Virus record (IMG/VR): IMGVR_UViG_3300022908_000003
Location: 4,054-68,053 of that record
Source of the DNA: a virus
Length of the DNA stretch: 64,000 bases
Reading direction: 5' to 3' (one strand)
Position numbers and translations under genes: made by a program. The notes beneath the pieces are model-generated. The model did no database searches and was not told the DNA's origin. It saw nothing but the letters and a program-made list of their open reading frames with translations. This document shows positions 7-61,201 of the stretch, piece by piece (within the stretch, counting starts at the first letter, position 1; every line of letters starts with the position of its first letter).

Positions 7-408
7 TTATACATTACTCCTTGCACATTTCTTACACATATTAGTTCCAGCGGGTACTTCTATAAGTTGTTTTACTTTTTCGGTAGGAACTCCACATAGA
101 CATCTACTACTTAGCATACCTTCCCCATAGACTTGTGCAATATGGTATTTATCTGTTGAATTATCTATAAATATCTGGCCTTCACGTGGACGCATCGGTA
201 AAGGAACTGCCGTACCTAGCAACTCTGCACGTCTAAGTTCATCAGATAATTCTAGTATCTGTCTTAGTGGTTTATTCAATCTAACAGATGCAAGATATAC
301 AATTAGTACAGCATCCATAAGTTGCTTTTGGGGTATCCCAAAATCTCTAGCTAATTTAGCAACTTTATCAGATAGTTCTAAGTCAACTTCTACATACGTT
401 TTCATCAT
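7..408 (-). CDS. hypothetical protein, possible ribbon-helix-helix N-terminus and C-terminal Cys cluster
   Basis: 133-aa ORF coupled to the upstream gene. N-term YVEVDLELSDKVAKLARDFGIPQKQLM resembles RHH; C-term has CLCG..CKKC. Confidence 0.5.
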   Translation of the reverse strand: MMKTYVEVDLELSDKVAKLARDFGIPQKQLMDAVLIVYLASVRLNKPLRQILELSDELRRAELLGTAVPLPMRPREGQIFIDNSTDKYHIAQVYGEGMLSSRCLCGVPTEKVKQLIEVPAGTNMCKKCARSNV

Positions 409-824
409 AGATCCCCGTCTCTTATCTTCATTAGTATTCTACCGAGGTGGTTTTCACCTCTGCCGTTAGACATACCCCAAAACCTATCTGCCCAGGAATT
501 AATTTCAACTATATTCTGATCCCCAGTTCTTTCTAACATTATGGTTAGATCATGGTTTTTCTTGAACTTCTGTATCACTAGGTAAGTCATTATATGTAGT
601 TTATCAAGTTCGAAATTTTCAATAAGTTCAACAGTCTTACCTAGTTGCTTGACTTCAGATGGTGTAATATTCTGAAACAACTGCATTTCTTTTTTAGTCT
701 TACATTTTGCTGCTTGATATGCATTTTCTACAGAATAAAATAATAGACCCTTATATTTTATTGGATTGGTTAACACAAAGAAATTAGATAAGAACTTGTA
801 CTTGCCTATAAATGGGCCTATCAT
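405..824 (-). CDS. NADAR (YbiA-like) family protein
   Basis: Hallmark motifs FLSNF, SVENAYQAAK, DRFWG, GENHLGRILMKIR. Confidence 0.9.
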   Translation of the reverse strand: MIGPFIGKYKFLSNFFVLTNPIKYKGLLFYSVENAYQAAKCKTKKEMQLFQNITPSEVKQLGKTVELIENFELDKLHIMTYLVIQKFKKNHDLTIMLERTGDQNIVEINSWADRFWGMSNGRGENHLGRILMKIRDGDL

Positions 825-3098
825 TTAAACCACTCCCTCTGTCGTCTTAACTTGAAGGCGACTAAGTTTCTTTCGAGGCAGTAACTTACGTTCTTCAGGA
901 TAGTACAAAGGAACTCCTTTAACGCTACGATCTGGTTCATTTTCTGCATTTACTACTCTTTCTCCGATAGTAGGAGGTGCTATCTTCTTTACTATTCTTA
1001 TTTTCTTCTGTCTATCTCTAAACTGTACCTTAACCATTCCGTTTATTCTTCGTAAACCAGATGTAGCCCATAGCTTAGAAATATCTGAAGAAGGATAGTA
1101 TTTCATAATAGGCGCGCCTCTCCCAGCAGGATTTTCAAATTTCCTAATGAAGATAACACCTAATTCTTGGAGATCCTCTAACTGATCTCTTAGTGTAGAC
1201 TTAGCTAATGAACAATCATCAGATAGTTCCTGTAATGTTTGTCCAGGACTTTCCATAAGAGAGGCTATAGCTTCTAAATTAAACCCTACACATGTGTCTA
1301 TTGCAACTCTTGAGAGAATACGATACTCAGTTAATCCAATAGACGGAGGGCTATTAATTAGAGAAAGCCCCATCAGGAGTTTCGTTAATTCTTTTGCAAC
1401 TCTTGTGCCTACTTCTTCTTGTGGTCTGTATAGCAGTTTTCTTTCACCTTTGAAATCTCTCTCTACCGTAGCTCTAAGTTTTGCTACGATCTGAGCTAAA
1501 GCAGATATTCTATCAATATCACTATCACTTATCTCAGGTACATCTTCTTCAAAGTTTACATTAACATCAAGGAAAGACCTAGCTATATCAATTAACTCTT
1601 GTCGAATAACTGCACCTTTACCTACAGATTTTATAGCTGCGCGTATAGGGTCACTATGATCTAAGTTGCATCCCTTTATGACATGCATCATAAGGAAACG
1701 TTCTCCAACTACAGAATTTCTTTCAGCATATATTGCTGGAGTAACTCCAGTAACTACATTGAAATGTGCTCTATATCTTCGAGTAATTCCATTGCCAAAA
1801 GGCTTCTCTACTTCCCCGTCATAAGCCCCTCTAAGTGTACCATATATTTCTTCTTTACTTATTCTTGGCATTGATAGAATTTCTGTGAAATCCTTCAGAA
1901 CAAGAGTTTTACCGTCTAGTGTTGGCAGAATACTTGGATCATGCCCCCCACCTTGCACAAACCCGCTCACAAGGGCATGAGGGGTCATTGTAGACATGAA
2001 ATGGCAAGTAAGACAAGCTGATATACTTGTAAGCAAAGCGGTTTTAGCTGCCCCCGGTGGAGCAACAATATGCACCCATAACGGGTCATCTGGAATATTT
2101 GTGGATAACACTACTGCATAAATTACACGTAATGCATCTTCCAGGTCCGGGGTCATTTTAAGGAACTTGCGATAAACCGATAATACAGTTTTGAAGCTAG
2201 GCCGGTTTCCAGATTTAATTGGATTATTTTTAATCTGCTCTTGTTTTGCCTGGGCTTTTTCTTGATCTGATGAATACCTTGCAATAAGGGAAGAGAATTC
2301 TTTAAAATCTGGTTTTTCTTTGGTAATGTATTCACGTATGTCATAACCATCCTGAGTTGTGGCTGGCCATACCAAGTGCAATACCTGTGCAGCACGATCT
2401 TTGATTTTTTCATAAACTCTTGCTTTACCTTTAGTTCCTGGACTATCATTATCATAACACAGTACAACTTTCTTACCTGCTAGATATTCTGTCCATGCAT
2501 CTTGCCAAGTTCCAGCACCAGGAACACCTAAAACAATTCCGGTTTCCGTTTCTCTGGTGAGAAAATCTCTTAAACAAATTTCATCCCATCTTCCCTCGCA
2601 CAAGTAAACAGTATCGCTGTCATTATCTGATAAAGTTTCTAGACCAAACAGTGAAACGCTAATAGAGGGTAAACCCTTTACTTGATCATTTAAATGGTAT
2701 GTTAAAAGATTAATTAAAGCTCCTGCGGTATTCCTTACAGGAAGTATATATCTCCAACCATCATGCACTATTCCTTCTTTACGTAGAAGTTTTACATTCA
2801 TGCCTCTATTGTCTGCAAGCTTCTTCATTGCTTCTGCTTGCAAACCTCTAGTTCTTATCTTCTCTTGGTACCATTCGTTAATAAATGTGTATGTGTTGCC
2901 TTTCTTAAAACATACTTTACATTCCCACATTGCTACAGTGGTTGTATTAAAGTTAATGTAGAGTTTATTCCTTGCACCACAGAACAAGCATTCCCCATAG
3001 GCTTCATTACCTACTACTCGTTCTTCGTGGTAATCAAAGCCAAGAGAACAGAAAGTTCTAAGCTTTAGCGGAACATCATTCTTTGATCTTGGCATCAA
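825..3098 (-). CDS. primase-helicase (Zn finger + TOPRIM + P-loop ATPase + C-terminal winged helix)
   Basis: CLFC..CKVC zinc finger; LCEGRWD and YDNDSPG TOPRIM motifs; Walker A-like APPGAAKT; Walker B-like LVLKDFTE; C-term STLRDQLEDLQELGVI. Confidence 0.8.
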   Translation of the reverse strand: MMPRSKNDVPLKLRTFCSLGFDYHEERVVGNEAYGECLFCGARNKLYINFNTTTVAMWECKVCFKKGNTYTFINEWYQEKIRTRGLQAEAMKKLADNRGMNVKLLRKEGIVHDGWRYILPVRNTAGALINLLTYHLNDQVKGLPSISVSLFGLETLSDNDSDTVYLCEGRWDEICLRDFLTRETETGIVLGVPGAGTWQDAWTEYLAGKKVVLCYDNDSPGTKGKARVYEKIKDRAAQVLHLVWPATTQDGYDIREYITKEKPDFKEFSSLIARYSSDQEKAQAKQEQIKNNPIKSGNRPSFKTVLSVYRKFLKMTPDLEDALRVIYAVVLSTNIPDDPLWVHIVAPPGAAKTALLTSISACLTCHFMSTMTPHALVSGFVQGGGHDPSILPTLDGKTLVLKDFTEILSMPRISKEEIYGTLRGAYDGEVEKPFGNGITRRYRAHFNVVTGVTPAIYAERNSVVGERFLMMHVIKGCNLDHSDPIRAAIKSVGKGAVIRQELIDIARSFLDVNVNFEEDVPEISDSDIDRISALAQIVAKLRATVERDFKGERKLLYRPQEEVGTRVAKELTKLLMGLSLINSPPSIGLTEYRILSRVAIDTCVGFNLEAIASLMESPGQTLQELSDDCSLAKSTLRDQLEDLQELGVIFIRKFENPAGRGAPIMKYYPSSDISKLWATSGLRRINGMVKVQFRDRQKKIRIVKKIAPPTIGERVVNAENEPDRSVKGVPLYYPEERKLLPRKKLSRLQVKTTEGVV

Positions 3099-3619
3099 AC
3101 ATGCTCTTTCCAGATTACTTTATTAAACACGTCAACTAAATAATCTATTACAGGTTCTAGTAACACCTTATCGGCATTTCCTGCTATATTAAGAATTTTT
3201 ATATCGTTCATGACTATCCAAAGGGCAACTTCTTCAATAGGTCTAAGTTCTTCAGCATGTAATATAATATCTAATGATGGCTTGTAATAATCTCTTATTG
3301 CTCTTAGTGTACATAGTTCCCCTGGAGATTGAAAATTATATGCTAGTCTTATTGTACCATCCGAAGTTTGCACGTTCTTTCTGGTACGAGATCTGTAATC
3401 AGGGCAATCGTCTTCAAGGTGATATATTATTTTCTGTGAAGGTCTGCAACCATCCTTAGTTAAATAACCTTTAACAGTATGCCCACCGGTTTTTAAACCT
3501 ACTCTTCTTGCTGCCATAAGCCCAGCTTGATCAACCCCAATTTGCCCTCCAGATATTACAGTTTCTAAATTATTATAGTTCCTTGTTAGAACTGGAGACT
3601 TCTTTATTTTGAACTTCAT
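3095..3619 (-). CDS. SLOG superfamily protein (cpYpsA / putative molybdenum-carrier-like)
   Basis: Motifs VISGGQIGVDQAGL, RTRKNVQTSDGT, LNIAGN. Confidence 0.8.
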   Translation of the reverse strand: MKFKIKKSPVLTRNYNNLETVISGGQIGVDQAGLMAARRVGLKTGGHTVKGYLTKDGCRPSQKIIYHLEDDCPDYRSRTRKNVQTSDGTIRLAYNFQSPGELCTLRAIRDYYKPSLDIILHAEELRPIEEVALWIVMNDIKILNIAGNADKVLLEPVIDYLVDVFNKVIWKEHV

Positions 3620-8121: not shown

Positions 8122-9666
8122 TTAAATAGGTACTCCTGCGGCTTTCAAATTATTCTCAGCAGCTTGTTGTGCTTTGCTTTGTTCTTCCAAATCACCTATA
8201 GGAATTATAGAAGAAGGATCTACTGCTACAGGTCGCCTTCTAGATCCTCTCATAATCTGAACTACATGCTCAGGATTATTAAAACTCTTATAGTCAATTC
8301 CAGTATACTTACCTTCTATGACTTTATCACCAGAGGAAGGGTACTTCCTTTCGGCAATTACATTCTGTCCTTCAATAGCCTTTAGCTTTTCGTTTTGTTC
8401 TGTTGGTTCTGGATTTGCTATTGTTAGTTCTTCCTTGACTTGCTGAATAACTTCAGGATCTATGCTAACCCCTGTTTCTTTCATTTTATCAACAATAGCA
8501 TCTAGATCTACTTCCGAATAGTAATGATCTATTTCTACAATAGCTTCGTTATGCCAATAAGGATTTCCAACTATATTGTACTGCCAGGTTCCTAGTAAAG
8601 CATTATCCATTGGCATGTCAGAATATCTAATAGCCTGTATCTTGCCGGAAATATCGTAACCTGCCACCTTTACATTGTCATTTAAGTTATGCAGGGGGGC
8701 AGAGATTAGATCGTCTTCGTGAACTGCATCAGGATTATCTCTAGGTAAAGTGTATAACCATCCTTTTGGAACTCCTGTTAAATATAGCCCAACCTCATGT
8801 ACAGGGTATGCCTCTAGAGGATTAATCTTATCAAATATTTTTTTGTGAGGGGTATTTGCCCTAACAACTACTAAATCATTTTCTTGGAACTTACTCTGAT
8901 CCATGTTACGATTTGAAGCATAGGTTATGTTATTAAGACGTTTCTCTATGTACTGTTTAGGATAACCTAACTCTATAAGTTTATCTAAAGTTTCTTTATA
9001 AAGCACACTAGAAACGTTAGTTCGTTCGCCTTGTGTTAGAGGCTGCTCATATGGAGCAGGAGGGTTTACTGCCTGATGCGCTCTTGGCTCACGCAGAGCC
9101 TCTTCTACGGCGGCATAAGGGGTATAGTAGATCCTTGTTACAGGTTCCCATTCAAACTTCTTTGGCGACGCTTCAGATGCGCTGTCAATCCACTTACCTA
9201 CCTGAACATACCACCCGGAAGTAGTATGCTGCAAAACGCAGTTAGGCGCAATTTCTGCAAGTTTTTCAAGTAGGCTATCAAGACCCCCAACATAACTTAC
9301 TGTAGTTCCTTCATGACTTGGATACTTTACAGGGTTAGCAACTTTTGCATTTTCTTCAAGATAAGCGGCTTTCTCACCATCATAACTAGAAGGGAATTGT
9401 AATTGTTTTGATTGTAAATGTACCTCTTCTGCTATCTCTTCTAGATGCGTTTTAGTAAGTCTTTCTACCAGAGAAGATGGCTTTGCAGATTTTGCAATAG
9501 AAGCTAATGTAGGTCCGCTATCCTCTTTTGTCTCAGGATGTACAGTAATCTCTTTACCGTCTAGTTGCAGCTTTAACGGTCTGCTTGCAGTCTTGAAACC
9601 TGCTACATCAGGTACAACTACATTTTGTTCAAATTTTGTGGCAATTCTCTTCTTAATCTTAACCAT
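8122..9666 (-). CDS. hypothetical multidomain protein
   Basis: 514-aa ORF. Confidence 0.7.
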   Translation of the reverse strand: MVKIKKRIATKFEQNVVVPDVAGFKTASRPLKLQLDGKEITVHPETKEDSGPTLASIAKSAKPSSLVERLTKTHLEEIAEEVHLQSKQLQFPSSYDGEKAAYLEENAKVANPVKYPSHEGTTVSYVGGLDSLLEKLAEIAPNCVLQHTTSGWYVQVGKWIDSASEASPKKFEWEPVTRIYYTPYAAVEEALREPRAHQAVNPPAPYEQPLTQGERTNVSSVLYKETLDKLIELGYPKQYIEKRLNNITYASNRNMDQSKFQENDLVVVRANTPHKKIFDKINPLEAYPVHEVGLYLTGVPKGWLYTLPRDNPDAVHEDDLISAPLHNLNDNVKVAGYDISGKIQAIRYSDMPMDNALLGTWQYNIVGNPYWHNEAIVEIDHYYSEVDLDAIVDKMKETGVSIDPEVIQQVKEELTIANPEPTEQNEKLKAIEGQNVIAERKYPSSGDKVIEGKYTGIDYKSFNNPEHVVQIMRGSRRRPVAVDPSSIIPIGDLEEQSKAQQAAENNLKAAGVPI

Positions 9667-10129
9667 TTTTTCTTTCTTTATCCTTTGTTAGTATATCGGT
9701 TGTTTTATTCATAAAGTTTTCAAACTCTTCTTCAGAACCATTAAACATAGTCTGTATTATAAAGAATTTAAATATATCAAATGTCCATGGTTTCATAGCC
9801 TCATTGGTTATGTAACTATTAACTAAATAGGCTAAACATCTTTCTTCGTTCTCTGTAAAAACTGTAGGAACAAAGAGGGTTTCCGTTTTCTCTGGTACAA
9901 GTTCTACTGTATCTCTTTGTATCTCTGTATGTCTTTCTTCTGGTGGCAGATGCCCTGATGTGTCTATTTCTTGCATTGCAACCCACTTTACTACGTACCC
10001 AAAATTATACGTAGTTTTTCCAAGTTCTCCTTGTACTTTAAATCCTTCAGGGTAGAGTGAAGTAGGTACTGACATTGCAATAACTTGCTTGCCTACATAC
10101 TTTTCTAAATCTTTTACAGGAATTGGCAA
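9659..10129 (-). CDS. hypothetical protein
   Basis: 156-aa ORF with TTG start and AGGAG RBS. Confidence 0.6.
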   Translation of the reverse strand: MPIPVKDLEKYVGKQVIAMSVPTSLYPEGFKVQGELGKTTYNFGYVVKWVAMQEIDTSGHLPPEERHTEIQRDTVELVPEKTETLFVPTVFTENEERCLAYLVNSYITNEAMKPWTFDIFKFFIIQTMFNGSEEEFENFMNKTTDILTKDKERKNG

Positions 10130-10130
10130 T

Positions 10131-10679
10131 TTACTTAACTCCTATGCTGCACATTCCAGCGCCATAAAGGTATACCCCCTTTGGTAGATCAGACCTTACA
10201 TATATCATATCTTCTTCTGCTAGTGGATTTTTGTCTGCGAACTTAAATTTATTGTTTCTGTTATCTAGAAACTCAAGAACTTCAACATTAAGTCTTGGAG
10301 TGACTTTAATTATAGTTCCTTTAGTTGTGGTTCTAAAGTAGATGTTCTTTCGGATTTGCTTTGGCTTGTTTGAAATATTCTCTTCTTTACCAGAGAGACG
10401 ACCGGTTTCGGTTCCATGGGTTTTAACTAAATCGAATTCATTTCTTGTATTTACTCCAGTATCAGAATTTTGACGGGTCAGTTTCATAATTCTTTTTTCT
10501 TGCTCTGAAAAATCAAACTGTTCCACTATCTTAGCTAATTCTCCCGGTTTTAGATCTGATCTACCACCTATAGAAGTCTCTACTCCTATGTGAGCTATAG
10601 AGGCAACAGCAGAACTTAATCCAACTAACATAGCTGTCTTCCCTACTGATTGAGGTTTATTTACTTTAATTGTATCCAT
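10131..10679 (-). CDS. hypothetical protein with a PolA-like TGRLS peptide
   Basis: 182-aa ORF with AAAGGA RBS; contains GTETGRLSGKEENISNKP. Confidence 0.6.
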   Translation of the reverse strand: MDTIKVNKPQSVGKTAMLVGLSSAVASIAHIGVETSIGGRSDLKPGELAKIVEQFDFSEQEKRIMKLTRQNSDTGVNTRNEFDLVKTHGTETGRLSGKEENISNKPKQIRKNIYFRTTTKGTIIKVTPRLNVEVLEFLDNRNNKFKFADKNPLAEEDMIYVRSDLPKGVYLYGAGMCSIGVK

Positions 10680-10710
10680 TTTAATTGTCCTTTGAATGAG
10701 ATCGTTAAAT

Positions 10711-10752
10711 AAAAAAGACGGAGCTACCTACCTAAGTAAATAACTCCGTCTC
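10711..10752 (-). terminator. intrinsic terminator
   Basis: Minus strand GAGACGGAG...CTCCGTC stem followed by TTTTTT, directly after the 10762..12069 gene. Confidence 0.8.
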
Positions 10753-10761
10753 ATTTAGCAA

Positions 10762-12069
10762 TTAATCTTCGTTGTCATCTTCGGGAATGATGTTTACAAT
10801 CTCACCAAATCCAACAACGTGTATTACTGCTCCTACCTTTACAGTGACCTTTGAAGTAGCTTCGTTGATCTTAGTAACCTTACCCTTCAAGGTCTTCTTA
10901 GCATTCTTAGGGTCTGTGAACACAATTGTATTTCCTACCTCAAGTTCCTCTTCCTCTTCCTCTTCGTCTTCTTCATCTTCTTCGTCGCCGTCTTCAGTTT
11001 CCTCTTCGTCGTCATCTTCTGCATCTTCGTCTTCTTCATCTTCAACTATTGCAGAAAGTTTAGAAACTTCTACTTCATCAAGGATGGGCTTCTTTGCAGT
11101 TCCTCCAACCCTGATTTTTGCGGTTTCGGTTGCTTCATCAATGGAGTGTATTGTACCGGTCTTGTCTTCTGTCTTAGCCTTCTTACCGATACCAGTTGTC
11201 ACACTCCAAGAAACCTCTTGACCTACTTCAAATTCGGTACCTTCATCCTCGTCTTCTGTTTCGTCGTCTTCATCCTCTGCAAGTTCTGCAAAAGTTTTGG
11301 TAAAGGTCTTTGTCTTCTTACCTACCTTAACCTTGATAGAGACGGTTTCCTCTTCTTCATCGACGGCAGAAACAATTCCGGTAAGTTCCTCGCCATCCTC
11401 TTCAAAGGTAATTTCGTCGCCTACCTCACATGGCGCTTCTGTTTCGTCATCATCTTCAGGTTCCGGTTCTGGAGTTTTTGTAGCAGGCTTCTTAGCCGAA
11501 GAGGTACTTGATGGCTTCACTCCAGCTTTTGACTTCTTTGGGGTTTCGGTTTCTGCTGCCTCATACCCTTCTTGACGCTTACCTAGATTAAACCACTGTC
11601 GTGGCTCTGTATAATTTCCAGTAGCGGCGGTAGTTTTCAGCTTGAACAGGAAGACCGGTTCTTCATCAAGACAATTCTGTAAAATTTCCTCAAACTGCTC
11701 AATATCCAAATCTGATGGGTCTTGATCTGTCATTAATCCAACTTGACGTACAAGTCTTGGATTAAATTCACCATTATTGTCAAGAAGGAAAAGCCACTGA
11801 GGGTAAACTTCGTTTACATGATCACCTTCTTGGATAGCCCAAGATAGCAGAGCACCCCAAACTTTATCTTCATCGGGTAAATCCGCAGTATCTTTAGTAG
11901 GCTTGATCTCGAAAGCGGCAAACTTTCCGATATAGTCGCCGTCTTCGTAGACATTACCTCCACCCTTCTTAGCTGCCTCTACTGTCTGATCCCAATTCTC
12001 CTTTGCCTTTGCAAGGAGAGCCTTATAACCGGTAACTACTGCTGCTGTCTTTTTCTTAGTAACTGACAT
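10762..12069 (-). CDS. putative single-stranded DNA-binding protein (DUF669-like N-domain) with acidic linkers and three SH3/KOW-like repeats
   Basis: N-term VYEDGDYIGKFAAFEIK resembles phage SSB/DUF669; lies next to an AAA recombinase; very D/E-rich; repeats EVGDEITF / EVGQEVSW / EVGNTIVF. Confidence 0.6.
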   Translation of the reverse strand: MSVTKKKTAAVVTGYKALLAKAKENWDQTVEAAKKGGGNVYEDGDYIGKFAAFEIKPTKDTADLPDEDKVWGALLSWAIQEGDHVNEVYPQWLFLLDNNGEFNPRLVRQVGLMTDQDPSDLDIEQFEEILQNCLDEEPVFLFKLKTTAATGNYTEPRQWFNLGKRQEGYEAAETETPKKSKAGVKPSSTSSAKKPATKTPEPEPEDDDETEAPCEVGDEITFEEDGEELTGIVSAVDEEEETVSIKVKVGKKTKTFTKTFAELAEDEDDETEDEDEGTEFEVGQEVSWSVTTGIGKKAKTEDKTGTIHSIDEATETAKIRVGGTAKKPILDEVEVSKLSAIVEDEEDEDAEDDDEEETEDGDEEDEEDEEEEEEELEVGNTIVFTDPKNAKKTLKGKVTKINEATSKVTVKVGAVIHVVGFGEIVNIIPEDDNED

Positions 12070-12119
12070 TGTTGTTTGTTTAACCTTTCGAGTTAAAGAG
12101 AGATTGTGAATTTAATACG

Positions 12120-12148
12120 GTTGCCCGTTTTCTCTGGTACAGAAATCT
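12120..12148 (-). repeat. copy of the dispersed ACCAGAGA motif
   Basis: Minus strand AGATTTCTGTACCAGAGAAAACGGGCAAC, directly after the pilin stop codon. Confidence 0.85.
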
Positions 12149-12313
12149 TTACTGTAGGACATTTGAGGTGTCGTTGAGTTTGTTAGAAGCAGTGCCGCCT
12201 AGAAATCCCATGGCGGCTATTGCAACAACTCCGATAAGTGCAACAAGAAGAACGTATTCAACTATTGTTGCTCCGTCTTCATCCTGTATAAACCGATTGT
12301 AGAATGTTTTCAT
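12149..12313 (-). CDS. flp: Flp/Fap family (Tad) pilin (not in ORF track)
   Basis: Manual translation MKTFYNRFIQDEDG/ATIVEYVLLVALIGVVAIAAMGFLGGTASNKLNDTSNVLQ (54 aa). Has the F-x2-DE-x-G prepilin leader, E+5/Y+6 Flp motif and hydrophobic helix; RBS GAAGGA. Confidence 0.9.
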   Translation of the reverse strand: MKTFYNRFIQDEDGATIVEYVLLVALIGVVAIAAMGFLGGTASNKLNDTSNVLQ

Positions 12314-12451
12314 TTATCCTTCTTTTTTACTAGGATATAGTTTCTGTGCTTTCTTTAGTTCTGAGTTAGTTGGCAACCTGCGATTTTTTATAGTAAATCT
12401 AGCTATCCATATTGGATCTACTGATTGCAGCAGTTTACTTCTAAGCTTCAT
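12314..12451 (-). CDS. small basic hypothetical protein (not in ORF track)
   Basis: MKLRSKLLQSVDPIWIARFTIKNRRLPTNSELKKAQKLYPSKKEG (45 aa); abuts both neighbours as TAA-ATG. Confidence 0.55.
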   Translation of the reverse strand: MKLRSKLLQSVDPIWIARFTIKNRRLPTNSELKKAQKLYPSKKEG

Positions 12452-13441
12452 TTATTTTGCCTTGAATTTAGCCTTTCGCTCAGATAGTTTTGGTTTCCTT
12501 TTTAAGATAAACTGTTCTTCTTGTTCATTGTTGAAAGCGGCCATGAAGTTTTCAAAAGCTTCTTCTTTGCTTTCACCCATTGGAACAGCATGTACAATTT
12601 CTCCAGAAGTTGTAAGGAAATGCCCTTCTGCTCTATTCCCTCCATCTATCGTCTGAGATCCTTCAATACAAAGCCATCTTTCCATTCCGAAGTAACCGTA
12701 GTAGATTGTTGCATCCGCATCACCTTTTATGAACAACCGTGCAGGTTCGCCCATGGTAGGAATTAGCTTATTATATTTAGCTCCAGTTTCTTCTTCGAAT
12801 TCTTTGGTCTTTGCATGACTGATATATACAATTCCTCTACCAGTGGCTTTCAAGTCCATAAAAGGTTTCTTGAATTCCATTTCTACAAGGTCTTGTCCGC
12901 GTCGATAGGCAAGTTTCCCTTCATTTATACTCTTTTCATTGTGAAGTTCAAGAATATATCTAACGCAAAGAACATATGCAAGATCGGCAGTGTCTATTAT
13001 GATATTCTCATATAGTTCACTACTGCAAATTTTCTCTACAATAGCCTTGAATTCTTCCCATGAAGACATGCTACCCTTTAGTGGTAATCTCTTGACTGAC
13101 AGGTATTTAACTCCATCTTCAAATACAAGAAATAAACAATCAGGGAACATGGATGCAAAACTACTCTTACCAATTTTCTCTTCACCATAAATGAGAAGGG
13201 TGGCACCACCCAAACTTGATACAGGTTCAGAAAATTCTGTAGGGAGTTCTATATCTTTTGCTCTGAAAATCACGGGTCGCTTACGTGCAGAAATTGCAGT
13301 AACGGGCTTTCGCTTTGTCGGCAGAGCAGCAGAACTTTTCCCGCCTGATCGACGGTTGATTGTTGCCATAATATATTTACCTTTCGCTAATATAGAGACG
13401 TATCCTTGTACGCTTGTCCATATCGCTATGATAGTTGTCAA
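12452..13441 (-). CDS. AAA_24 / Sak4-like ATPase (recombination/annealing)
   Basis: LIYGEEKIGKS Walker A, IIIDTAD Walker B, IVYISHAK. True start is probably the internal MATINRR behind a GAAAGG RBS. Confidence 0.8.
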   Translation of the reverse strand: MTTIIAIWTSVQGYVSILAKGKYIMATINRRSGGKSSAALPTKRKPVTAISARKRPVIFRAKDIELPTEFSEPVSSLGGATLLIYGEEKIGKSSFASMFPDCLFLVFEDGVKYLSVKRLPLKGSMSSWEEFKAIVEKICSSELYENIIIDTADLAYVLCVRYILELHNEKSINEGKLAYRRGQDLVEMEFKKPFMDLKATGRGIVYISHAKTKEFEEETGAKYNKLIPTMGEPARLFIKGDADATIYYGYFGMERWLCIEGSQTIDGGNRAEGHFLTTSGEIVHAVPMGESKEEAFENFMAAFNNEQEEQFILKRKPKLSERKAKFKAK

Positions 13442-13501
13442 AGAGCCATCAGGAAAATGCCCGGCACTATGGCCGTTCGGGGTTTCCTGCCGACACCTAA
13501 G

Positions 13502-13530
13502 AGTATATCACGTTCAACGGGCAATGTCAA
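13502..13530 (-). promoter_or_regulatory. sigma70-type promoter
   Basis: TTGACA-17 nt-TATACT with an extended -10 TG, upstream of the AAA/pilin/SSB unit. Confidence 0.8.
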
Positions 13531-13610
13531 GGAGATTTCGAAAATTTCCGAAAAATTCTTTTTCTAGATGGGAAATGGACTGTTTTGTAGCCTAGCTTAC
13601 CCTTATCCGC

Positions 13611-13838
13611 TCAGTACCTCCAAGTTTTAGTTACTAAATTAAATTCATAAATCCTGTTATCTGTCTCAGGGTTATTAAAACCTGAAATAAACACAGCAGG
13701 TTCATGAATTCCATCTTCGCCTTTATCCACAGAAACTACAAGACCTAGCTCATCTCCCGTAGCATAAAGAGCTATCACAGATTTTACAGTTTCATCAGCA
13801 TTCTCTAGAGCTAACTTGATCATTTCAAAGGCTGTCAT
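13611..13838 (-). CDS. hypothetical protein
   Basis: 75-aa ORF with GAGG RBS. Confidence 0.55.
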   Translation of the reverse strand: MTAFEMIKLALENADETVKSVIALYATGDELGLVVSVDKGEDGIHEPAVFISGFNNPETDNRIYEFNLVTKTWRY

Positions 13839-13839
13839 C

Positions 13840-15054
13840 TTATACCTCTACTAGTTCAGGAAATACATGAAGACGCTTATGATAGTACCTAGCTTCGGCA
13901 GGGTTAGCACAAGCTTGTAAGAATTCACAAGGTCTGTTCCATGCTTTACAAGAAGCTGTATTTCTAAAGCTATTCTTTGGGTTTTCGTTCTGCCATTCAT
14001 AAAGACGTTCTAGGATATAGTCTAGATCGATATCACGATATTCTTCAACATCTTTCCATGGGATTGATTGGGGATGCCTGTAGAAATAGTCATTAGGATT
14101 TTCTTTAATATGCTTATCAACTCTTGCAAAGAATTCAGGTAGCGTTTCGGGTTTTCTATAGTAGGTTCCGCTATATTCCTGCCCTGGTTTCTTTATTAGG
14201 TTGTATAAAACCCCTTTCGGCTTCTCTTTGTACACATACTCCAAAGCAAGCATGTACACCATAACTTGCAGTTCAAAACCAAGACGATCTAAAGTAACTT
14301 TATCTTTTATATCTCCTTTGGTCTTACTTTCGAATAACCACAATTCTCCATTTTTATTACGAAATACTCCATCAAATTTTCCACGAATTTGTATAGTAAT
14401 TCCGTTTCGTAGCTTATAAGGCATAGAGAAGACTTGTTCTACAGCAAGCCAGTTCATATTAACGTCTGTCTTGTAGTGTTGGTAGTACCTCTTCAAGACA
14501 ACATTACATAGACCATTGGTTTGCTGAAAAGACTGTTGATCTTTGAGATCAAATTTCTTTAATTTCTTTACTATATCTAAGCTACTTGAAGTTAATACAT
14601 GATCTATGGTCTGATATATAGTCTGTGTAGTAGATTGAACTTTATACTTCTTACGATGAAGATACACCTTATCGAGAGTATTATGAAAATGATCCCCAAA
14701 ATCTAATGCTGTATCAGGTCTTGTAGTTTTCTCAAGCCCTAGTATCATCTTCCAATAACACTTCATAGGACAAAGCGCAAATAAAGCTATTGTAGACTGC
14801 GTAACCCCATCTCTCCCCATATCCCAGAAATTACGTAAATACTGTGGTTTCCCCGTTTTCTCTGGTGTAGAAATACCTGATCCTTTGCAAACTCTACAAG
14901 AACCACTACTAGAAGGATCTTCTCCTGTTCCTTCGCAGTATTTGCAAACATCTTCAGGTATTTTTACCATTTTCGGTTTTTGATTTAAAAGGAAATTTAA
15001 ATCCTTTGTTAAGTTGCTTGAAATCTGTTTCGATTTCAGTTTAATTTTTACCAT
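13840..15054 (-). CDS. PD-(D/E)XK (RecB/Cas4-like) exonuclease with DnaJ-type zinc finger
   Basis: CP..YW, ALDFGDHFH, AVEQ, RGKFDG..LFESKT, QVMVY, C-terminal C..C..C; N-term CKYCEGTG..CRVCKGSG. Confidence 0.8.
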   Translation of the reverse strand: MVKIKLKSKQISSNLTKDLNFLLNQKPKMVKIPEDVCKYCEGTGEDPSSSGSCRVCKGSGISTPEKTGKPQYLRNFWDMGRDGVTQSTIALFALCPMKCYWKMILGLEKTTRPDTALDFGDHFHNTLDKVYLHRKKYKVQSTTQTIYQTIDHVLTSSSLDIVKKLKKFDLKDQQSFQQTNGLCNVVLKRYYQHYKTDVNMNWLAVEQVFSMPYKLRNGITIQIRGKFDGVFRNKNGELWLFESKTKGDIKDKVTLDRLGFELQVMVYMLALEYVYKEKPKGVLYNLIKKPGQEYSGTYYRKPETLPEFFARVDKHIKENPNDYFYRHPQSIPWKDVEEYRDIDLDYILERLYEWQNENPKNSFRNTASCKAWNRPCEFLQACANPAEARYYHKRLHVFPELVEV

Positions 15055-15768
15055 TTAACTTCCTTCCTTCTTAGTTCCCAAAACCTTTTATAGATTAATT
15101 GTAGTCTAGGCACATAAAGGTTATATGTGTGTGAGCCAATTCCTCCATTTCGAAGAACATAGGAGGGATGTATAATTGTGTAGAGCTTTTCCTGACTTAC
15201 CCCATAATCAAAAGGTACTATTGTATCTTTTAAATACAATTCAGCTTCTTTCCCTACACAGACTACTATAGTTGGTTTAAGAACTTTAATCATAGATCTT
15301 AGTCTAGGAAAGCAATTTATAACTTCTGAAACAGAAGGTGGTTTATTAGCTGATGAAGAAGGCTTTCCTTGATATGGTCTACAAGCTATTAAATTTGTTA
15401 AACCTATGGTAAGTCTTCCATACCCTTTACAAAACTGGCAAGCCTGAGTACCAATAGGAAAGCCATTATCAGCACCGGAACCATCACAGAAAGTACAGAA
15501 AGGCTGCGCATCCTCTATAGCTTGTCTGAGAAGCTTTCCAGCAGGGCCAATGAAAGGAAATCCTTCTAGATCTTCCACCAGACCCGGACCTTCACCTACC
15601 ATTAAAATATCTACACCTTGTTTTGCTCCAAATGCCAAAACAGTTTTAGGTATTGTGTCTAATAAACACATGGTGTCTTGCAGTCTCTCCTATCTTACAT
15701 TTAGTACAAGAACTCCATTCATCTTGAATTACTCTAAGACTTAGACGTTTAACGGGAAATTTTGCCAT
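15048..15768 (-). CDS. uracil-DNA glycosylase, family 4, split by a +1 frameshift
   Basis: Core 15048..15671 has VGEGPG, PFIGPAG, NLIACRP, HPSY. The N-terminal WSSCTKC part lies in an upstream frame (15646..15768) behind a strong GGAGGTGA RBS. Confidence 0.8.
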
Positions 15769-16057
15769 CTAATGTCACCTCCCAATTCTCAGTCACATAC
15801 CTACCATCTCCACGAAAGGTATTAATTATCTCAGAGATTTTCAGTTCCCCGACATCTAACCTTCCTAGAGTAAATTTAGTATTTGGATACATTACTTTCA
15901 TGCACCCATGAACGTCTTGTATAGTTGCATTTTGATGCCATAGTAATACTCTTTGTTCACCTGGAAGATTAAGCAACCATGCGGTACATAGGCAAGACCT
16001 AATAGGTACAGCGCAACTATATCTTACTTTTCTCTTTCTATTTATTTTTACTTTCAT
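15749..16057 (-). CDS. hypothetical protein
   Basis: 102-aa ORF with AAGGAAA RBS. Confidence 0.6.
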   Translation of the reverse strand: MKVKINRKRKVRYSCAVPIRSCLCTAWLLNLPGEQRVLLWHQNATIQDVHGCMKVMYPNTKFTLGRLDVGELKISEIINTFRGDGRYVTENWEVTLDGKISR

Positions 16058-18954: not shown

Positions 18955-19620
18955 TTATTTCCTTTTCACAGTTTTTACAGTACGTTTTGAAGAAACCGTT
19001 TTCTCTGGTGAAGAAACTATCAATTCCCCTGTTCCATCACAGGTTTTACATTCTTCGTCTTTTCTGTCATCCCATCCAGAACCTTTGCAGACTTTACATT
19101 CTTTAGTGGTACTTAGTTGTTGTAGTTCATTAAGACTATCTTCACCGGCTTTCTTTGCTACTCTTGCAATAATTTTATGGTCTTCTTCGCTTTTTGTTAT
19201 TCTTTCTTGTCTTGATAGTAACTTAATTTTTATAGGCTTTGTTTCTTCCTTTGGTTGTTGTACTCCTTTTGACAGAAGACCCAACCCTTTATCAGTGAGT
19301 TTGTATTTTCTACACCAGAAGTCTTGAAAACCTAATTGAGTTGCTTTCATATGTCCTAGATGTTCCAACACCCTTAGATCATTTACATCTATTTCTGTAG
19401 AAAATCTAACATTCTTGCTTGATAAAGCCATGTTGCAATCCATAGCAGTCATCCAAGAGTTACCTAAATATTTCCAAGCACTTACTGTATTTTTTAATCT
19501 TTCTGACCATGGAGTAAGAGGTGTTCCCATATGAAATGATTCTAGCAACTCTCTAGGGTCTTGCGGTTCTTTAACTACTTCATCAGAAGGGGGGATTGGT
19601 TTTTTGATTTTTATCTTCAT
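18955..19620 (-). CDS. winged-helix-like protein with DnaJ-type zinc finger
   Basis: LRVLEHLGHM..KYKLTDKG wing motif; CKVCKGSG..CKTCDGTG. Confidence 0.55.
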   Translation of the reverse strand: MKIKIKKPIPPSDEVVKEPQDPRELLESFHMGTPLTPWSERLKNTVSAWKYLGNSWMTAMDCNMALSSKNVRFSTEIDVNDLRVLEHLGHMKATQLGFQDFWCRKYKLTDKGLGLLSKGVQQPKEETKPIKIKLLSRQERITKSEEDHKIIARVAKKAGEDSLNELQQLSTTKECKVCKGSGWDDRKDEECKTCDGTGELIVSSPEKTVSSKRTVKTVKRK

Positions 19621-23893: not shown

Positions 23894-26227
23894 TTAAATA
23901 TGGAAATAGGTAATCATTACGTTATCACCTGTTTTTGTTGGGTAAGTTACTAAAGTAAGTGTGTCAGATACTATAGTATAGTCCACTGTGTAATCCAGAA
24001 GAACACCGTTAAAATAAACAAACTCTGTGTCTGTCAATGGTGCATAGGATAAGGTTAAAACAGTATCTCCATCTGAAGCTATTGTAAATACTTCTCTAGT
24101 CGGAGAACCTGAAGTAACAATAGCTGCAACATCTGCAACCAAAGCATCCTGAGTAGCTTTATCAGCATAGTAAGGTTGCGCAGGTTGTATGTAAACTTCT
24201 TGTGGAACTACGTCATCTGGATTTTGTAGAATAGAGACACATTTAATAAGTACTGTTTGTCCTGCCAGAGAAGAGGCAACTGTAAATCTTGATACCCCCG
24301 CATCTAGTTTTACAAAAACATCTGTAGAAGTATGTCCTGTAGCAAGTGTTCCTCTTTGCTCTCTTAGAAAGGTCTGTAGAGTATAGTGATCAGACGAAGT
24401 AAAATCTGCTTCAGCAAAGCCTAATACTTCGTAGTTACTCGAATTATCTACACTCTGGTCAAGCTGAGTAACTAATATGTATTCCCCATCTCCTGCTTTG
24501 ACTTTAGCTTTAGATGTAGTCTCCAAACCAGTTCCGGGATTTATAATAACATCTAATGTATTTACTATGTCAAATCCATCTGCATCAGGAGTATAGCTTG
24601 CAGAAAGGGTGCTTGCTACAGAACCAAATCCACCTTTATTTGTTAAGTTGCCTAATTTACTATAAGTGCTGCCACCATCAACTGACATTAAGACTACAGC
24701 ACCTCTCCATAGTCCTGCAATTAAGTAAGCTGATCCTACTACATAAATTCCGGTATTTGTGCTGTCATTGTTGCGGAGTTCTTTTCCAGACCATGCAAAG
24801 AATGTGGTAGGGGAAACAGGAACATAAACATAACCGCCACTTGGTATTGATGGAGGTGCTGTCTGTATTAGTACATTTTCGTCATCGTTAACAAACTTCA
24901 AATCAATAGGACCGGGGGTACCTGTTTCAGCTTCAGTTACTCTAACCCTCTGTAGTGTACCTTCTTCGTCTATCTGAAGTAGTAAAACGTCTGAAGGAGT
25001 GAGTAAAGCCCATCTAGGAACTGCGCTACCTGAATGCCCAACACTTTCAACCCATCTTATGTATAAACTACGCTCTACAACTTTCTTTGCTTCAGCATCT
25101 TTAAGAACTAAAGGTAAATTTATACTCTCATAATTATTGTTTTTTGCTGATATTCTTATAGCTGTTTGAGTTGCAGACTGTAGGTTATTAGTAGTTGATA
25201 GATACCCTAGATCAATCTTCTTAGGTAGATTAATTCTATCAGGTCTTGTTGTAGTTAGCCTATCAGTAACGGCAGGACTTCCGCTATCAACTATCTGAGC
25301 ACCTAAATCGTCCCAAGTTAAAGTACCTACTGGATCTCCACCTCTAGGTACAGCTTTTATAGTTCCATTTACGTCTATTAGATCAACATTATAGGCATCA
25401 AGTAGAGGCTGAACTGAAGACTTTGCATCAATTCTTGCACTCATAGTCATGCCTGTTATTTGAATATCTTCTACCAGAGAAATGTCAACCTGGCTTTCAT
25501 CAATACCTACTTGAGTGAATATATCAAGGAATACATCGGATAAAAAACAATCTTCTGTTTCTACTTCTATAGAAAAATTAGGAAGTGCATTTCCAAAATC
25601 AGATAGCTCCATATTTTCTATAACCATGTAGTTATAGCCTCTAAATGCTGGAGCATCTGTACCCGCTGGAACGTCATCTGTTGCTGCACTTGCTATTATT
25701 AAAGGGTCTGCATCTTGCGTTTCTGTACCAGGATAAAATCTAGGATTAATTCTATTTTCGTCCGAGGTATGTGAACTATCATACATTATAACATCATTAG
25801 CATATATCTTCTTTACTACATTAGTTGTGTTTCTATTGCCCTTACAAACTAGCATAGCAAAAGATATAGTATATGAGTACACTGTAGTTGTTACGCTAGG
25901 TCCGCCGGAACCTCCACCGCCTTGAGATTGTTCAGTTTTATGTTCTACAAGATTAGTACCCCATATGATAATCCCAGGTACTTTGTTATGCCCCCAGCAC
26001 TGAGGTATAGAAGTTCCATATGAAGCTGTAGTAACTACAAGATCCGAAGTCCTGCCCATATCAGCGGTATGGTAATGAGTATTAGCTTGATCAATATAAG
26101 CTCCTACTGTAGAACCTATAGAAAAACCTAACATAGCTCCTTTAACAGCCCCACCAGGACCAGCTAATAAACCTCCAGCAACAGCACCAGCAACACCTAG
26201 AATTATTTGCATCTTTTCCATCTCCAA
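23894..26227 (-). CDS. tail tip / central fibre protein (RcGTA g15 / Phage-tail_3-like)
   Basis: SYGTSIPQCWG, IIWGT, YSYTISFA, FYPGTETQDADPLI, PAFRG, LSDFGNALPNFSIEV. Confidence 0.8.
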   Translation of the reverse strand: MEMEKMQIILGVAGAVAGGLLAGPGGAVKGAMLGFSIGSTVGAYIDQANTHYHTADMGRTSDLVVTTASYGTSIPQCWGHNKVPGIIIWGTNLVEHKTEQSQGGGGSGGPSVTTTVYSYTISFAMLVCKGNRNTTNVVKKIYANDVIMYDSSHTSDENRINPRFYPGTETQDADPLIIASAATDDVPAGTDAPAFRGYNYMVIENMELSDFGNALPNFSIEVETEDCFLSDVFLDIFTQVGIDESQVDISLVEDIQITGMTMSARIDAKSSVQPLLDAYNVDLIDVNGTIKAVPRGGDPVGTLTWDDLGAQIVDSGSPAVTDRLTTTRPDRINLPKKIDLGYLSTTNNLQSATQTAIRISAKNNNYESINLPLVLKDAEAKKVVERSLYIRWVESVGHSGSAVPRWALLTPSDVLLLQIDEEGTLQRVRVTEAETGTPGPIDLKFVNDDENVLIQTAPPSIPSGGYVYVPVSPTTFFAWSGKELRNNDSTNTGIYVVGSAYLIAGLWRGAVVLMSVDGGSTYSKLGNLTNKGGFGSVASTLSASYTPDADGFDIVNTLDVIINPGTGLETTSKAKVKAGDGEYILVTQLDQSVDNSSNYEVLGFAEADFTSSDHYTLQTFLREQRGTLATGHTSTDVFVKLDAGVSRFTVASSLAGQTVLIKCVSILQNPDDVVPQEVYIQPAQPYYADKATQDALVADVAAIVTSGSPTREVFTIASDGDTVLTLSYAPLTDTEFVYFNGVLLDYTVDYTIVSDTLTLVTYPTKTGDNVMITYFHI

Positions 26228-26745
26228 ATGGAGTGAATGTTATCCCACCATTCAGGGAGCATCGTAGTTTCTACAACTTTATTTAGACCTGTGGTATACC
26301 AGGCATGTATCACGGTTTTAAATTCAGTACAATATACTAGATGATGGTATATTCCAGTTCCTCTGATTAGAATAAGATCGCCAGGTAAAGGGGGTTCCCC
26401 GTTCTCTCTGGTAGTGAAATCATTCCAGGTGAGAACTTCTATCATATCCGCAATTCCGTCTTTTCTATTGTAGAATTTTTTGTCTTTAACTTCTACTCCT
26501 AGATAACGAAGTGCTGCTACCATTACCCCGCCGCAATCTAAACCACCATCAGGACCAACAACCCTACCTGCATGTTTAAATGGGGTTCCTATGGTAGATC
26601 TAACTGCATTTGTAAGTTCTTTTACTGTAAAAAATTGACTATCCTCTTCTATCCCGGCGGTCGGCCCGTTGTCAATAGATAGTTGTTGTCCGGAACATAG
26701 AGAAAGCCATGGAAGTTCGGAAGGTTGTTGAATTTCGTTCGACAT
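26203..26745 (-). CDS. NlpC/P60 tail-associated peptidase (RcGTA g14-like)
   Basis: GTPFKHAGR..GLDCGG, PGDLILI, HL..VIHA. True start is probably downstream of 26745. Confidence 0.85.
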   Translation of the reverse strand: MSNEIQQPSELPWLSLCSGQQLSIDNGPTAGIEEDSQFFTVKELTNAVRSTIGTPFKHAGRVVGPDGGLDCGGVMVAALRYLGVEVKDKKFYNRKDGIADMIEVLTWNDFTTRENGEPPLPGDLILIRGTGIYHHLVYCTEFKTVIHAWYTTGLNKVVETTMLPEWWDNIHSIWRWKRCK

Positions 26746-27521
26746 GTTACACCTCTTCTATCACAACCTGCTTCTAAAATAACTGCATCTCCAACTGTTA
26801 AAGGAAATGGCATAGCTTCTTGTAATATAATAACTGCGGTAGAGCCTACTTTAGTATGGATCTTTACTTCCATGTTTATATTGTAATTTTTACCACCACC
26901 ATCAGCGATAGATTTAAATCTTACTAACCCATACTCATAGTACCCTGTGTCGTGAGTGTCATTAAATACTAAAGTTCTTTGGTTTGTTATTGAAGCTATT
27001 GTCCTACTGAATTGGTAATCTAGTAAATTTACTTTGCATTCATAGTCGCCAAGTTGGTTTACAGAACAAGAGCCAGCAACTACTCTTCCAAACTGTTGCG
27101 AACACTTTTGACCTATTGAATTAATTGGAACTGTAAAAGCTTTTTCGCCGTATTCTATATCTCCTATAGTTCCAACCATCTCTTTTATCTCACCTAGGCT
27201 TAGATCAAATGGATTTACTCTAAGAATAGTAACAACGGCATAATCGTACCTACCGCCTCTTATGTCTTCTTTCTTTATATAATACTCGTCAATTGCTCCG
27301 AGAAAATCCATTTGATCTGTAGTTAGATCAGAATTAGTTTTTATTGCTGATGGGTCCATAGAAATTGCAGGAATGTAGATATCTCCATCATAGATTATCT
27401 CTTCATCCCAAGCAGTAAAGAATAAAGATACCCCATCAGTTCTTTCTATTTTTACTAAGGTAGTTAAGGGTTGATAGGGCTGTCCTAGTAAAGCTATCAT
27501 ACCTGAGCTTGCAGATTTCAT
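26649..27521 (-). CDS. baseplate hub protein (DUF2163/BR0599, RcGTA g13-like)
   Basis: IERTDG..FT, GRYDYA, C..LGD..C, AGCDR..TCRTKFNNLPNFHGF. Confidence 0.85.
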   Translation of the reverse strand: MKSASSGMIALLGQPYQPLTTLVKIERTDGVSLFFTAWDEEIIYDGDIYIPAISMDPSAIKTNSDLTTDQMDFLGAIDEYYIKKEDIRGGRYDYAVVTILRVNPFDLSLGEIKEMVGTIGDIEYGEKAFTVPINSIGQKCSQQFGRVVAGSCSVNQLGDYECKVNLLDYQFSRTIASITNQRTLVFNDTHDTGYYEYGLVRFKSIADGGGKNYNINMEVKIHTKVGSTAVIILQEAMPFPLTVGDAVILEAGCDRRGVTCRTKFNNLPNFHGFLYVPDNNYLLTTGRPPG

Positions 27522-27531
27522 CTGACTTCCT

Positions 27532-55685: not shown

Positions 55686-55714
55686 AGTATATCACGGTCT
55701 GCATAGTATGTCAA
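55686..55714 (-). promoter_or_regulatory. sigma70-type promoter
   Basis: TTGACA-17 nt-TATACT with extended TG. Confidence 0.8.
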
Positions 55715-61172: not shown

Positions 61173-61201
61173 AGTATATTCTATCCTTCACCCTATGTCA
61201 A
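61173..61201 (-). promoter_or_regulatory. sigma70-type promoter
   Basis: TTGACA-17 nt-TATACT. Confidence 0.8.

Follow-up and report, generated by a model that had tools for sequence, protein, structure and literature searches.

Bacteria use pili of the Tad/Flp type to adhere, to form biofilms and to sense surfaces, and phages use them as receptors. Here we describe a Flp prepilin gene, flp, that is carried by a phage: an open reading frame (ORF) for a 54-amino acid (aa) protein at positions 12149..12313, minus strand, of a 64,000-nt stretch of viral DNA (hereafter the window) comprising bases 4054-68053 of the 68,053-bp IMG/VR record IMGVR_UViG_3300022908_000003. To judge from its sequence and from a viral precedent in archaea, the phage probably feeds its own Flp subunit into the pilus apparatus of the host during infection.

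The prepilin PilA of Caulobacter crescentus has a 14-residue leader, and its mature chain starts at Ala15. Glu19 and Tyr20 form a network of hydrogen bonds in the core of the pilus, and assembly depends on them whereas processing does not; the C-terminus of the pilin points outward from the pilus (PMC11067988, in the sections drawn on here). Among viruses, SNJ2, a provirus of archaea, carries genes for two type IV pilins, PilA1 and PilA2, but none for PilB or PilC (Xiang et al. 2025, PMC12426801). Experiments in the portions of that paper used here showed that the host machine builds these pilins into dominant surface filaments, which act as the receptor for a second virus and favour both biofilm formation and motility. 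The same portions state that viral pilin genes have been taken from hosts several times, and cite Tip, a protein of the Pseudomonas prophage D3112 that blocks PilB and pilus extension.

In the literature that we found, phages figure as users of Tad pili or block type IVa pili by means of non-pilin proteins, and the virus-encoded pilins that have been tested are archaeal only, as far as the excerpted text of PMC12426801 extends. The search, which had supplements outside its range, returned no paper on the function of a bacteriophage Flp pilin, and no pilin-based superinfection exclusion is described in the papers found. A "Flp family type IVb pilin" is tabled in two Sinorhizobium meliloti phiLM21-like prophages, without comment in the part of PMC12429752 that concerns us.

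An intact Flp prepilin gene outside any tad locus

An earlier, sequence-only reading of the window had described the ORF as a textbook Flp prepilin of 54 aa with its own ribosome-binding site, and had named a Flp profile search as the check. The ORF and the site are present as described (Table 1), and the search supports the assignment: PF04964 (Flp_Fap) matches the protein at 35.7 bits (E 7.7e-9), above the curated cut-off of 32.2, aligning residues 8-49 to model positions 1-42 of 46. A six-frame search of the whole virus record with PF04964 returned the flp site again, at 34.7 bits, also above the cut-off. PHROGs held no family for phage Flp at E<=0.01. The protein starts MKTFYNRFIQDEDG/ATIVEY and continues with a hydrophobic stretch and a short polar tail.

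Among 5.8 billion sequences, 18 other proteins match phage Flp, with E values from 4.7e-16 to 3.0e-8. They are 56-80% identical to it and all contain PF04964, which argues that the phage ORF is not a chance occurrence. Phage Flp has the leader motif RFxx[DE]E[DE]G in common with its homologs, and E19 and Y20 are invariant in the alignment of phage Flp with the 18 proteins (alignment A1). Position 17 is I in phage Flp, L in all 18 of these homologs and M in other relatives. A profile built from phage Flp and these nearest relatives matches the PilA structures 8u1k (E 1.4e-5) and 8u2b (E 1.8e-5). Residue 1 of the solved mature chain (8u1k) pairs with A15 of phage Flp, and the alignment of residues 15-47 with the helix has no gaps in either structure. 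The mature part is accordingly predicted to be one hydrophobic-to-amphipathic helix that lacks a globular head. By this alignment cleavage is predicted at G14/A15, within QDEDG14/A15-T-I-V-E19-Y20, so that the mature protein holds A15, E19, Y20, the hydrophobic helix and the short polar C-terminal tail.

The same reading had seen no other tad genes and no prepilin peptidase in the window, an absence that extends to the whole 68,053-bp record. Peptidase_A24 and TadE have no match there at an E limit of 10, nor does the T2SSE ATPase at an E limit of 1, and no Tad family was found among the 86 window ORFs scanned with Pfam. Linkage to tadV, rcpCA, tadZABC and tadEFG is lacking, which makes phage flp a family member outside any tad locus. 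CheckV puts the completeness of the record at 100%; in a complete phage genome without Peptidase_A24, TadE and T2SSE, any processing or assembly of the pilin must use host parts. These observations show that the ORF is a bona fide, intact Flp prepilin gene that the phage carries alone.

Composition and divergence of flp

For a codon comparison, the phage gene was set against 31 distinct homolog segments, obtained from 36 loci after removal of duplicates. Nonsynonymous divergence (dN) was 0.07-0.24. Nei-Gojobori synonymous divergence (dS) was saturated, being undefined in 27 of the 31 comparisons and 2.35-2.87 in four; these pairwise figures include the bacterial branches, and the phage branch is one sequence. 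GC content at third codon positions (GC3) is 0.30 in phage flp vs. 0.53-0.90 in the homologs in this comparison; for the flp gene itself the GC content is 0.42 and GC3 is 0.36. Saturated dS, phage-like GC3 and low dN together indicate that flp is old in the phage and has been under purifying selection.

Compared with the 18 homologs, phage Flp is 84% identical over its core, but its leader is 43% identical and its last seven residues, the tail, are 20% identical. Three extra C-terminal residues (NSN, TSN, NSS, NSQ or QGQ), which phage Flp lacks, are carried by 14 of the 18. By its sequence, then, flp is fully phage-like in composition while frame, predicted cleavage site, E19/Y20 and the 84% core stay. 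From the leader motif, E19/Y20 and the conserved core we infer that phage Flp has been kept able to be cleaved and assembled.

These data bear on the possibility that flp is a neutral passenger or an assembly artefact, that is, a chance bacterial fragment or a metagenome misassembly with no role in the phage. Such an origin would fit a gene seen in one metagenome genome, with no relatives found that carry flp. However, the GC and GC3 of flp fit the phage and not the bacterial relatives, and flp has kept its reading frame and every signature residue while synonymous divergence has reached saturation. The first three genes of the unit in which flp lies (the Sak4-like gene, orf45 and flp; see below) abut one another through TAA/ATG junctions. 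A 67.9-kb contig from sequencing run X1, probably the source data, spans window 9000-16000 in one piece with 0 differences; contigs from run X2 are short fragments only within that interval, none of them over flp. We regard a passenger or artefact as very improbable.

The retained residues also bear on a decoy or signalling role, in which the prepilin would act in the inner membrane without forming a filament, either competing for the peptidase or platform or mimicking a pilin pool that the cell senses. Membrane pilin pools act as signals in Caulobacter. Consistent with such a role, the peptidase's recognition motif in the proximal leader is conserved, and the phage supplies no pilus machinery. 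A pure decoy would need neither E19/Y20 nor the packing core, however. Both have been retained, the former being required for assembly and not for processing in PilA (PMC11067988, same sections) and the latter 84% identical despite saturated synonymous change, and this retention counts against the decoy, which seems improbable.

Bacterial relatives, origin and host

Species-representative genomes, scanned with the single peptide pattern VEYVLLVAL and hence with a bias to that Flp subfamily, contain 36 loci with a relative: 25 in Armatimonadota metagenome-assembled genomes (MAGs), eight in Actinomycetota and three in others. The Armatimonadota loci belong to Capsulimonadaceae, Capsulimonas, Chthonomonadaceae and Armatimonadales, and the three best matches, at 61-68% identity, all come from this phylum. 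In a sample of 301 Armatimonadota genomes, 124 have a relative, often in tandem copies, the best being 64-72% identical to phage Flp. Metagenome contigs yielded 120 relatives, of which 80 were kept; over a 40-codon core segment, metagenome relatives are 68-88% identical to phage Flp. As a further feature of the phylum, arrays of at least three tandem flp paralogs are common in Armatimonadota genomes (G002:C204:41328-42058, G188:C1:5722112-5722841, G120:C6:95856-99230), and some genomes (G100, G209) hold up to about 10 dispersed copies.

Relatives in loci L047, L050/L062, L002 and L003 head canonical Tad loci, in the order flp, a 110-aa ORF, TadE, TadG-like, Peptidase_A24, RcpC/CpaB, secretin, TadZ and CpaF, the last seen only where the available locus DNA reaches that far. 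Peptidase_A24 lies 2-3 kb downstream of flp in the relatives' loci. In a comparison limited to the loci collected here, the closest matches to the Tad proteins of L050 and L047 come from the Capsulimonadaceae loci L002 and L003 (TadZ 73%, secretin 51-59%). Bacterial flp paralogs without Tad neighbours occur in L052, L057 and L067. Just upstream of flp, two of the Tad loci carry genes for GT87-family (GT-C type) glycosyltransferases (L047:7294-8868, L050:6219-7559).

The Armatimonadota-like Tad-locus pilins have the signature RFxx[DE]E[DE]G / AT[LMI]VEYVLLVALIG in common with phage Flp; they differ in setting, as theirs start Tad loci whereas phage flp stands alone, and most of them carry the extra C-terminal residues, such as NSN or NSS, that are missing from phage Flp. 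These comparisons suggest that phage flp derives from the major Tad pilin of an Armatimonadota-like host bacterium and was captured long ago. The view of flp as a host clue, put forward in the sequence-only reading, has thus gained content, with the nearest relatives heading Tad loci of Armatimonadota-like bacteria, and from this one gene we infer an Armatimonadota-type host for the phage. Armatimonadota is a phylum with few cultured members, and flp would be a rare host lead for a phage of this group.

The four-gene unit containing flp

The features of the unit are listed in Table 1. The consensus promoter that the sequence-only reading had placed upstream of flp is there, as TTGACA-17-TATACT. 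Exact TTGACA-N17-TATACT sites number three, all on the coding strand, against a chance expectation of 0.14; none of 100 shuffles had as many. All have the form TTGACAT-N15-ATATACT on the minus strand: the copy at 13.5 kb heads the Sak4-flp unit, and those at 55686-55714 and 61173-61201 (55.7 and 61.2 kb) sit in a region of small ORFs. The three copies look like the phage's set of promoters for the host polymerase, and because two of them lie in the small-ORF region, the promoter type would be early or middle, read by host polymerase. Two of the three copies also have CGTGATATACT in common.

Table 1. Coordinates of flp and of the other features of its four-gene unit, in window positions.
Feature	Position	Strand	Basis or remark
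Sigma-70-type promoter, TTGACAT-N15-(TG)ATATACT	13502..13530	-	11/12 consensus positions plus TG extension
Sak4-like AAA_24 single-strand annealing / RecA-like protein (predicted)	12452..13441	-	Pfam AAA_24 9.6e-31; phrog_124 2.8e-28
orf45, small basic ORF	12314..12451	-	ORF list; abuts both neighbours, TAA/ATG junctions
GAAGGA, Shine-Dalgarno-like site of flp	12317..12322	-	inside 3' end of orf45; ends 3 nt before ATG
flp leader peptide (predicted), codons 1-14 (MKTFYNRFIQDEDG)	12272..12313	-	ends in cleavage-site Gly; alignment to PilA 8u1k
Mature Flp pilin (predicted), codons 15-54, 40 aa	12152..12271	-	PF04964; 8u1k profile match; stop codon 12149-12151
435-aa protein, OB-fold N-terminal domain (modelled)	10762..12069	-	AF2 model, Foldseek, VIA-align
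Intrinsic terminator (predicted), GAGACGGAG...CTCCGTCT plus T run	10715..10752	-	terminator scan: 17-pair stem, 6 G-C

Downstream of the promoter the gene order is Sak4-like, orf45, flp (third of four) and the gene for the 435-aa OB-fold protein, and a strong terminator 10 nt past the latter closes the unit. An Rfam search of window 10000-14000 gave nothing better than E 0.16. The family matched by the first gene, phrog_124, is annotated as "Sak4-like ssDNA annealing protein". Translation of the Sak4-like gene probably begins at ATG 13369, which has GAAAGG upstream, although the longest ORF reaches back to TTG 13441; the 5' leader of the gene shows no unusual folding (z -1.04). orf45 has no Pfam or PHROG match.

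The sequence-only reading had set flp between an AAA recombinase and an SSB-like gene. The first neighbour stands as a Sak4-like AAA_24 protein, the Sak4-like part of a possible Sak4-SSB module. For its partner the label SSB-like is plausible, resting on a modelled OB fold with weak PrgE, RPA and SSB matches. The AF2 model of the N-terminal domain of the 435-aa protein, made from a 10-row alignment (A2), is an OB barrel with a pLDDT of 81.2; a single-sequence model (pLDDT 39.6) was useless. Foldseek ranks the SSB-like PrgE, RPA and bacterial SSBs highest for this domain, with E values of 6e-3 at best, and VIA-align gave similarly weak agreement (PrgE Z 7.1, RPA Z 5.0). The protein has no SSB Pfam match of its own; one homolog, P0025, touches DUF669 at 21.8 bits. 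Beyond the OB domain it consists of KOW/SH3-like repeats with strongly acidic D/E linkers between them and an acidic C-terminus; in a profile search of PDB sequences the repeats gave weak L24/NusG KOW matches and nothing else matched. The family is very small, with 12 relatives among 1.84 billion representatives, and a word-index homolog search returned only the protein itself.

The carrier phage

The carrier is apparently a siphovirus-like soil phage, uncultured and, by its gene content, probably lytic. Its GC content is about 38% overall and 33-42% per 2-kb window, nearly all ORFs lie on one strand, and no tRNAs were found in the phage sequence. PHROGs and Pfam identified structural and lysis genes for terminase, portal, major head protein, tape measure, a GTA-like tail/baseplate set and an M15 endolysin. 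Genes for replication and repair encode a family A DNA polymerase, primase, SNF2 helicase, UDG, a PD-(D/E)XK exonuclease and the Sak4-like AAA_24 protein. Neither a tyrosine integrase nor a serine recombinase had a match anywhere in the 68,053-bp record.

The phage is without close relatives. Window 9000-16000 had no blastn match among GenBank phages, and the best match of the terminase, to a Bradyrhizobium phage, is at 31.7% identity. In IMG/VR, relatives of the Sak4-like protein were found at three loci only (26-28% identity), none of them with a Flp-like ORF, and the capsid protein had no relatives. A search for related phage loci through P0021, the closest homolog of the 435-aa protein, also found none.

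Several other genes deserve mention. The primase gene is flanked by genes for a NADAR domain protein (window 405-824, minus strand, 3.8e-22) and a circularly permuted YpsA SLOG protein (window 3095-3619, minus strand, 5.4e-24); the two are candidates for handling of ADP-ribose or nucleotide signals, possibly in counter-defence. The tail/baseplate module belongs to the GTA / phiJL001 type (window positions 23894-28149 and 34614-37064, both minus strand), with the families PF09931, PF09356, PF09343, PF13550, Rcc01698_C and NlpC/P60, and includes an 816-aa protein with PA14 and LamG lectin-like domains that is likely a sugar-binding receptor protein. Weak DnaJ-type CXXCXGXG zinc-finger motifs, below the cut-off, occur at the N-terminus of the PD-(D/E)XK exonuclease (13840-15054, minus strand) and at the C-terminus of a 221-aa protein (18955-19620, minus strand).

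Solitary flp genes in other viruses

IMG/VR was scanned with the canonical motif G-A-T-A-I-E-Y-[GA] (loci L125-L166). The scan gave 43 matches in 42 loci, and 37 of these yielded 38 short prepilin-like ORFs; the other five (L138, L154, L160, L162, L164) were chance matches. All 38 ORFs match PF04964, 36 of them above the cut-off. Within 2 kb, a Tad component is present at one of the 37 loci (TadE in L133), and the 147 neighbouring ORFs of at least 100 aa include no peptidase, ATPase or secretin. A survey of phage genomes for solitary flp genes, suggested by the sequence-only reading, has thereby turned up 36 further viral loci out of 37 without a Tad neighbour. The figure of 37 loci is an upper estimate, since some of the IMG/VR records are predicted prophages and host DNA may lie within their borders. 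Genes recognised nearby encode terminase small subunits, NusG-like proteins, a phage metallopeptidase, a DUF2280 protein, an integrase, DnaB and methyltransferases.

At 60% identity the 31 unique viral Flp sequences form 14 clusters, and the window Flp clusters with no other. The tree built from 171 Flps (171 rows, 52 columns, including the chance row L138) sets the canonical GATAIEY viral group on one side of a branch whose SH-aLRT is 99. The window Flp lies outside it, among Armatimonadota-type sequences, at a path distance of 1.9 from the nearest member of that group as against 0.43 to metagenome relatives; 52 columns are too short to place it in a supported small clade and resolve little else. 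Searches of IMG/VR with the single protein and with the alignment found no close viral relatives of the window Flp. Against 50,697 GenBank phage records, tblastn gave no match for it (E<=1) or for the canonical Flp of L148 (E<=1e-3), a weak negative because the BLAST low-complexity filter may mask hydrophobic peptides. At E<=0.01, PHROGs matched 0 of 12 viral Flps tested.

Two groups stand out among these loci. Ten (L127, L130, L132, L144, L146, L147, L152, L156, L161, L163) carry a near-identical flp (MKKLFSK...DESGATAIEYGLIAAL...) on contigs with a GC of 0.56-0.59, with a NusG-like gene on one side and genes for terminase small subunit, phage metallopeptidase or DUF2280 on the other; this placing, where the late region begins, is moron-like. 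Three low-GC (0.39-0.42) viral contigs, L131 (183 kb), L155 (94 kb) and L133 (77 kb), have a divergent Flp (EGATAIEYGMISSVMFGL...), which in two of the three is just below the PF04964 cut-off, at 31.8 bits; in L133 a TadE-like gene lies about 1 kb from flp.

Like phage flp, these genes encode short PF04964 prepilins in viral DNA with Tad machinery not nearby; they differ in that many adjoin terminase small subunit, NusG-like or integrase genes, whereas the window flp is in a recombination operon. Another possible role of phage Flp is to supply adhesion: it would be built into working Tad pili, maybe as the dominant subunit, so that infected cells stay attached near dense hosts, to surfaces or in biofilm, or gain in some other way that also serves the phage, with nothing excluded from the cell. 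Many other viral flp genes are moron-like in position, which is typical of lysogenic-conversion cargo, and the SNJ2 pilins form dominant filaments that promote biofilm and motility (PMC12426801, the portions cited above). The sequence features pointing to cleavage and assembly fit adhesion and exclusion alike and do not choose between them. On the other hand, a phage with no integrase or resolvase and with its own polymerase, primase and helicase would leave a short time for an adhesion benefit, and its flp belongs to a replication/recombination unit under an early-type promoter. We consider adhesion supply unlikely, although it ranks ahead of a decoy or signal.

A proposed role in altering the host pilus

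In the explanation that we favour, host RNA polymerase would transcribe flp together with the genes for the Sak4 recombinase and the OB-fold protein from the early-type sigma-70 promoter, and the 54-aa prepilin would insert in the inner membrane. A TadV-type peptidase of the host would cut it at G14/A15, and the 40-aa mature helix would use its conserved core, which includes E19/Y20, to enter the Tad assembly machine of the host. These last two steps, cutting and entry, are proposed because of the conserved leader motif, E19/Y20, the packing core and the SNJ2 precedent. The divergent, shorter, outward-facing C-terminus might then alter the pilus surface or disturb pilus growth. The most likely benefit would be an altered or disabled receptor pilus, whereby superinfection is excluded or progeny are spared adsorption to doomed cells. 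Receptor alteration or exclusion comes first in our ranking, tentatively and with a probability of roughly 0.45, on the grounds of an apparently lytic phage, an early-type promoter and a differing outward tail; adhesion supply comes second, a decoy or signal third, and a passenger or artefact last. Exclusion had already been suggested in the sequence-only reading and is to be taken as hypothetical; the identification of Flp stands.

Several points weigh against receptor alteration and the host on which it is built. The phage lineage is represented by a single genome, which puts conservation of flp among phages beyond reach, and transcription of flp is read from the DNA sequence. The GC content of the phage, 38%, compares with 47-60% in the contigs of its closest homologs and 57-69% in the Armatimonadota MAG loci, and the phage capsid protein matches in 3 of 301 Armatimonadota genomes, at 24-25% identity (0 of 4 in an earlier sample), a result uninformative on host. 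The C-terminal tail varies among bacterial homologs too, four of the 18 being without the extra three residues. Use of a Tad pilus as receptor by this phage or a competitor is conjecture, and the GTA-like tail with its PA14 and LamG protein suggests a sugar receptor. Finally, the viral pilins of SNJ2 promoted biofilm and motility and created a receptor instead of removing one (PMC12426801, as excerpted).

A wider reading takes pilin mimicry as a general, repeatedly evolved phage strategy. Unrelated phages (the Armatimonadota-type siphovirus, the large low-GC contigs and many temperate phages) would each have captured a host major Flp, and the host apparatus would build a filament with a phage-chosen surface, or stall; in the lytic phage, an early, short-tailed Flp would strip or disguise the Tad pilus receptor. 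We think this generalisation doubtful. If true, the Flp of the lytic phage would be the first pilin-based device for superinfection exclusion or receptor masking.

Comparison with known systems

The presence in a lytic phage of an flp gene apparently kept by selection suggests a second route by which viruses could reprogram a surface organelle of the host, namely by supplying its building block. The protein is an ordinary member of the Flp family in an unusual and little-studied setting, one that recurs across viruses and is invisible to standard phage annotation. Viral flp genes are easily missed, as they fall below the usual ORF length cut-offs.

By alignment, Caulobacter PilA (8u1k, 8u2b) resembles phage Flp in its 14-residue leader, its start at A15, E19-Y20 in the same numbering and a single amphipathic helix. 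It differs in that the predicted mature part is 40 aa in the phage and 45 in PilA, in that phage Flp is of the VEYVLLVAL subfamily and not the canonical AIEYGLI, and in that the phage has no tad locus. D3112 Tip offers another parallel, as a phage product that targets a type IV filament of its host, one used as a receptor by phages; unlike Flp, Tip is not a pilin, and it acts on the ATPase of type IVa pili (as cited in the portions of PMC12426801 used here).

The SNJ2 pilins are, by analogy and as far as those portions of the paper describe them, the closest proven precedent for phage flp. SNJ2 is an archaeal temperate pleolipovirus with archaeal type IV pilins, whereas phage Flp belongs to the bacterial Flp/Tad type and is known from sequence alone. 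What the two appear to have in common is the arrangement itself: virus-encoded pilins, captured from hosts, without a viral assembly ATPase or platform.

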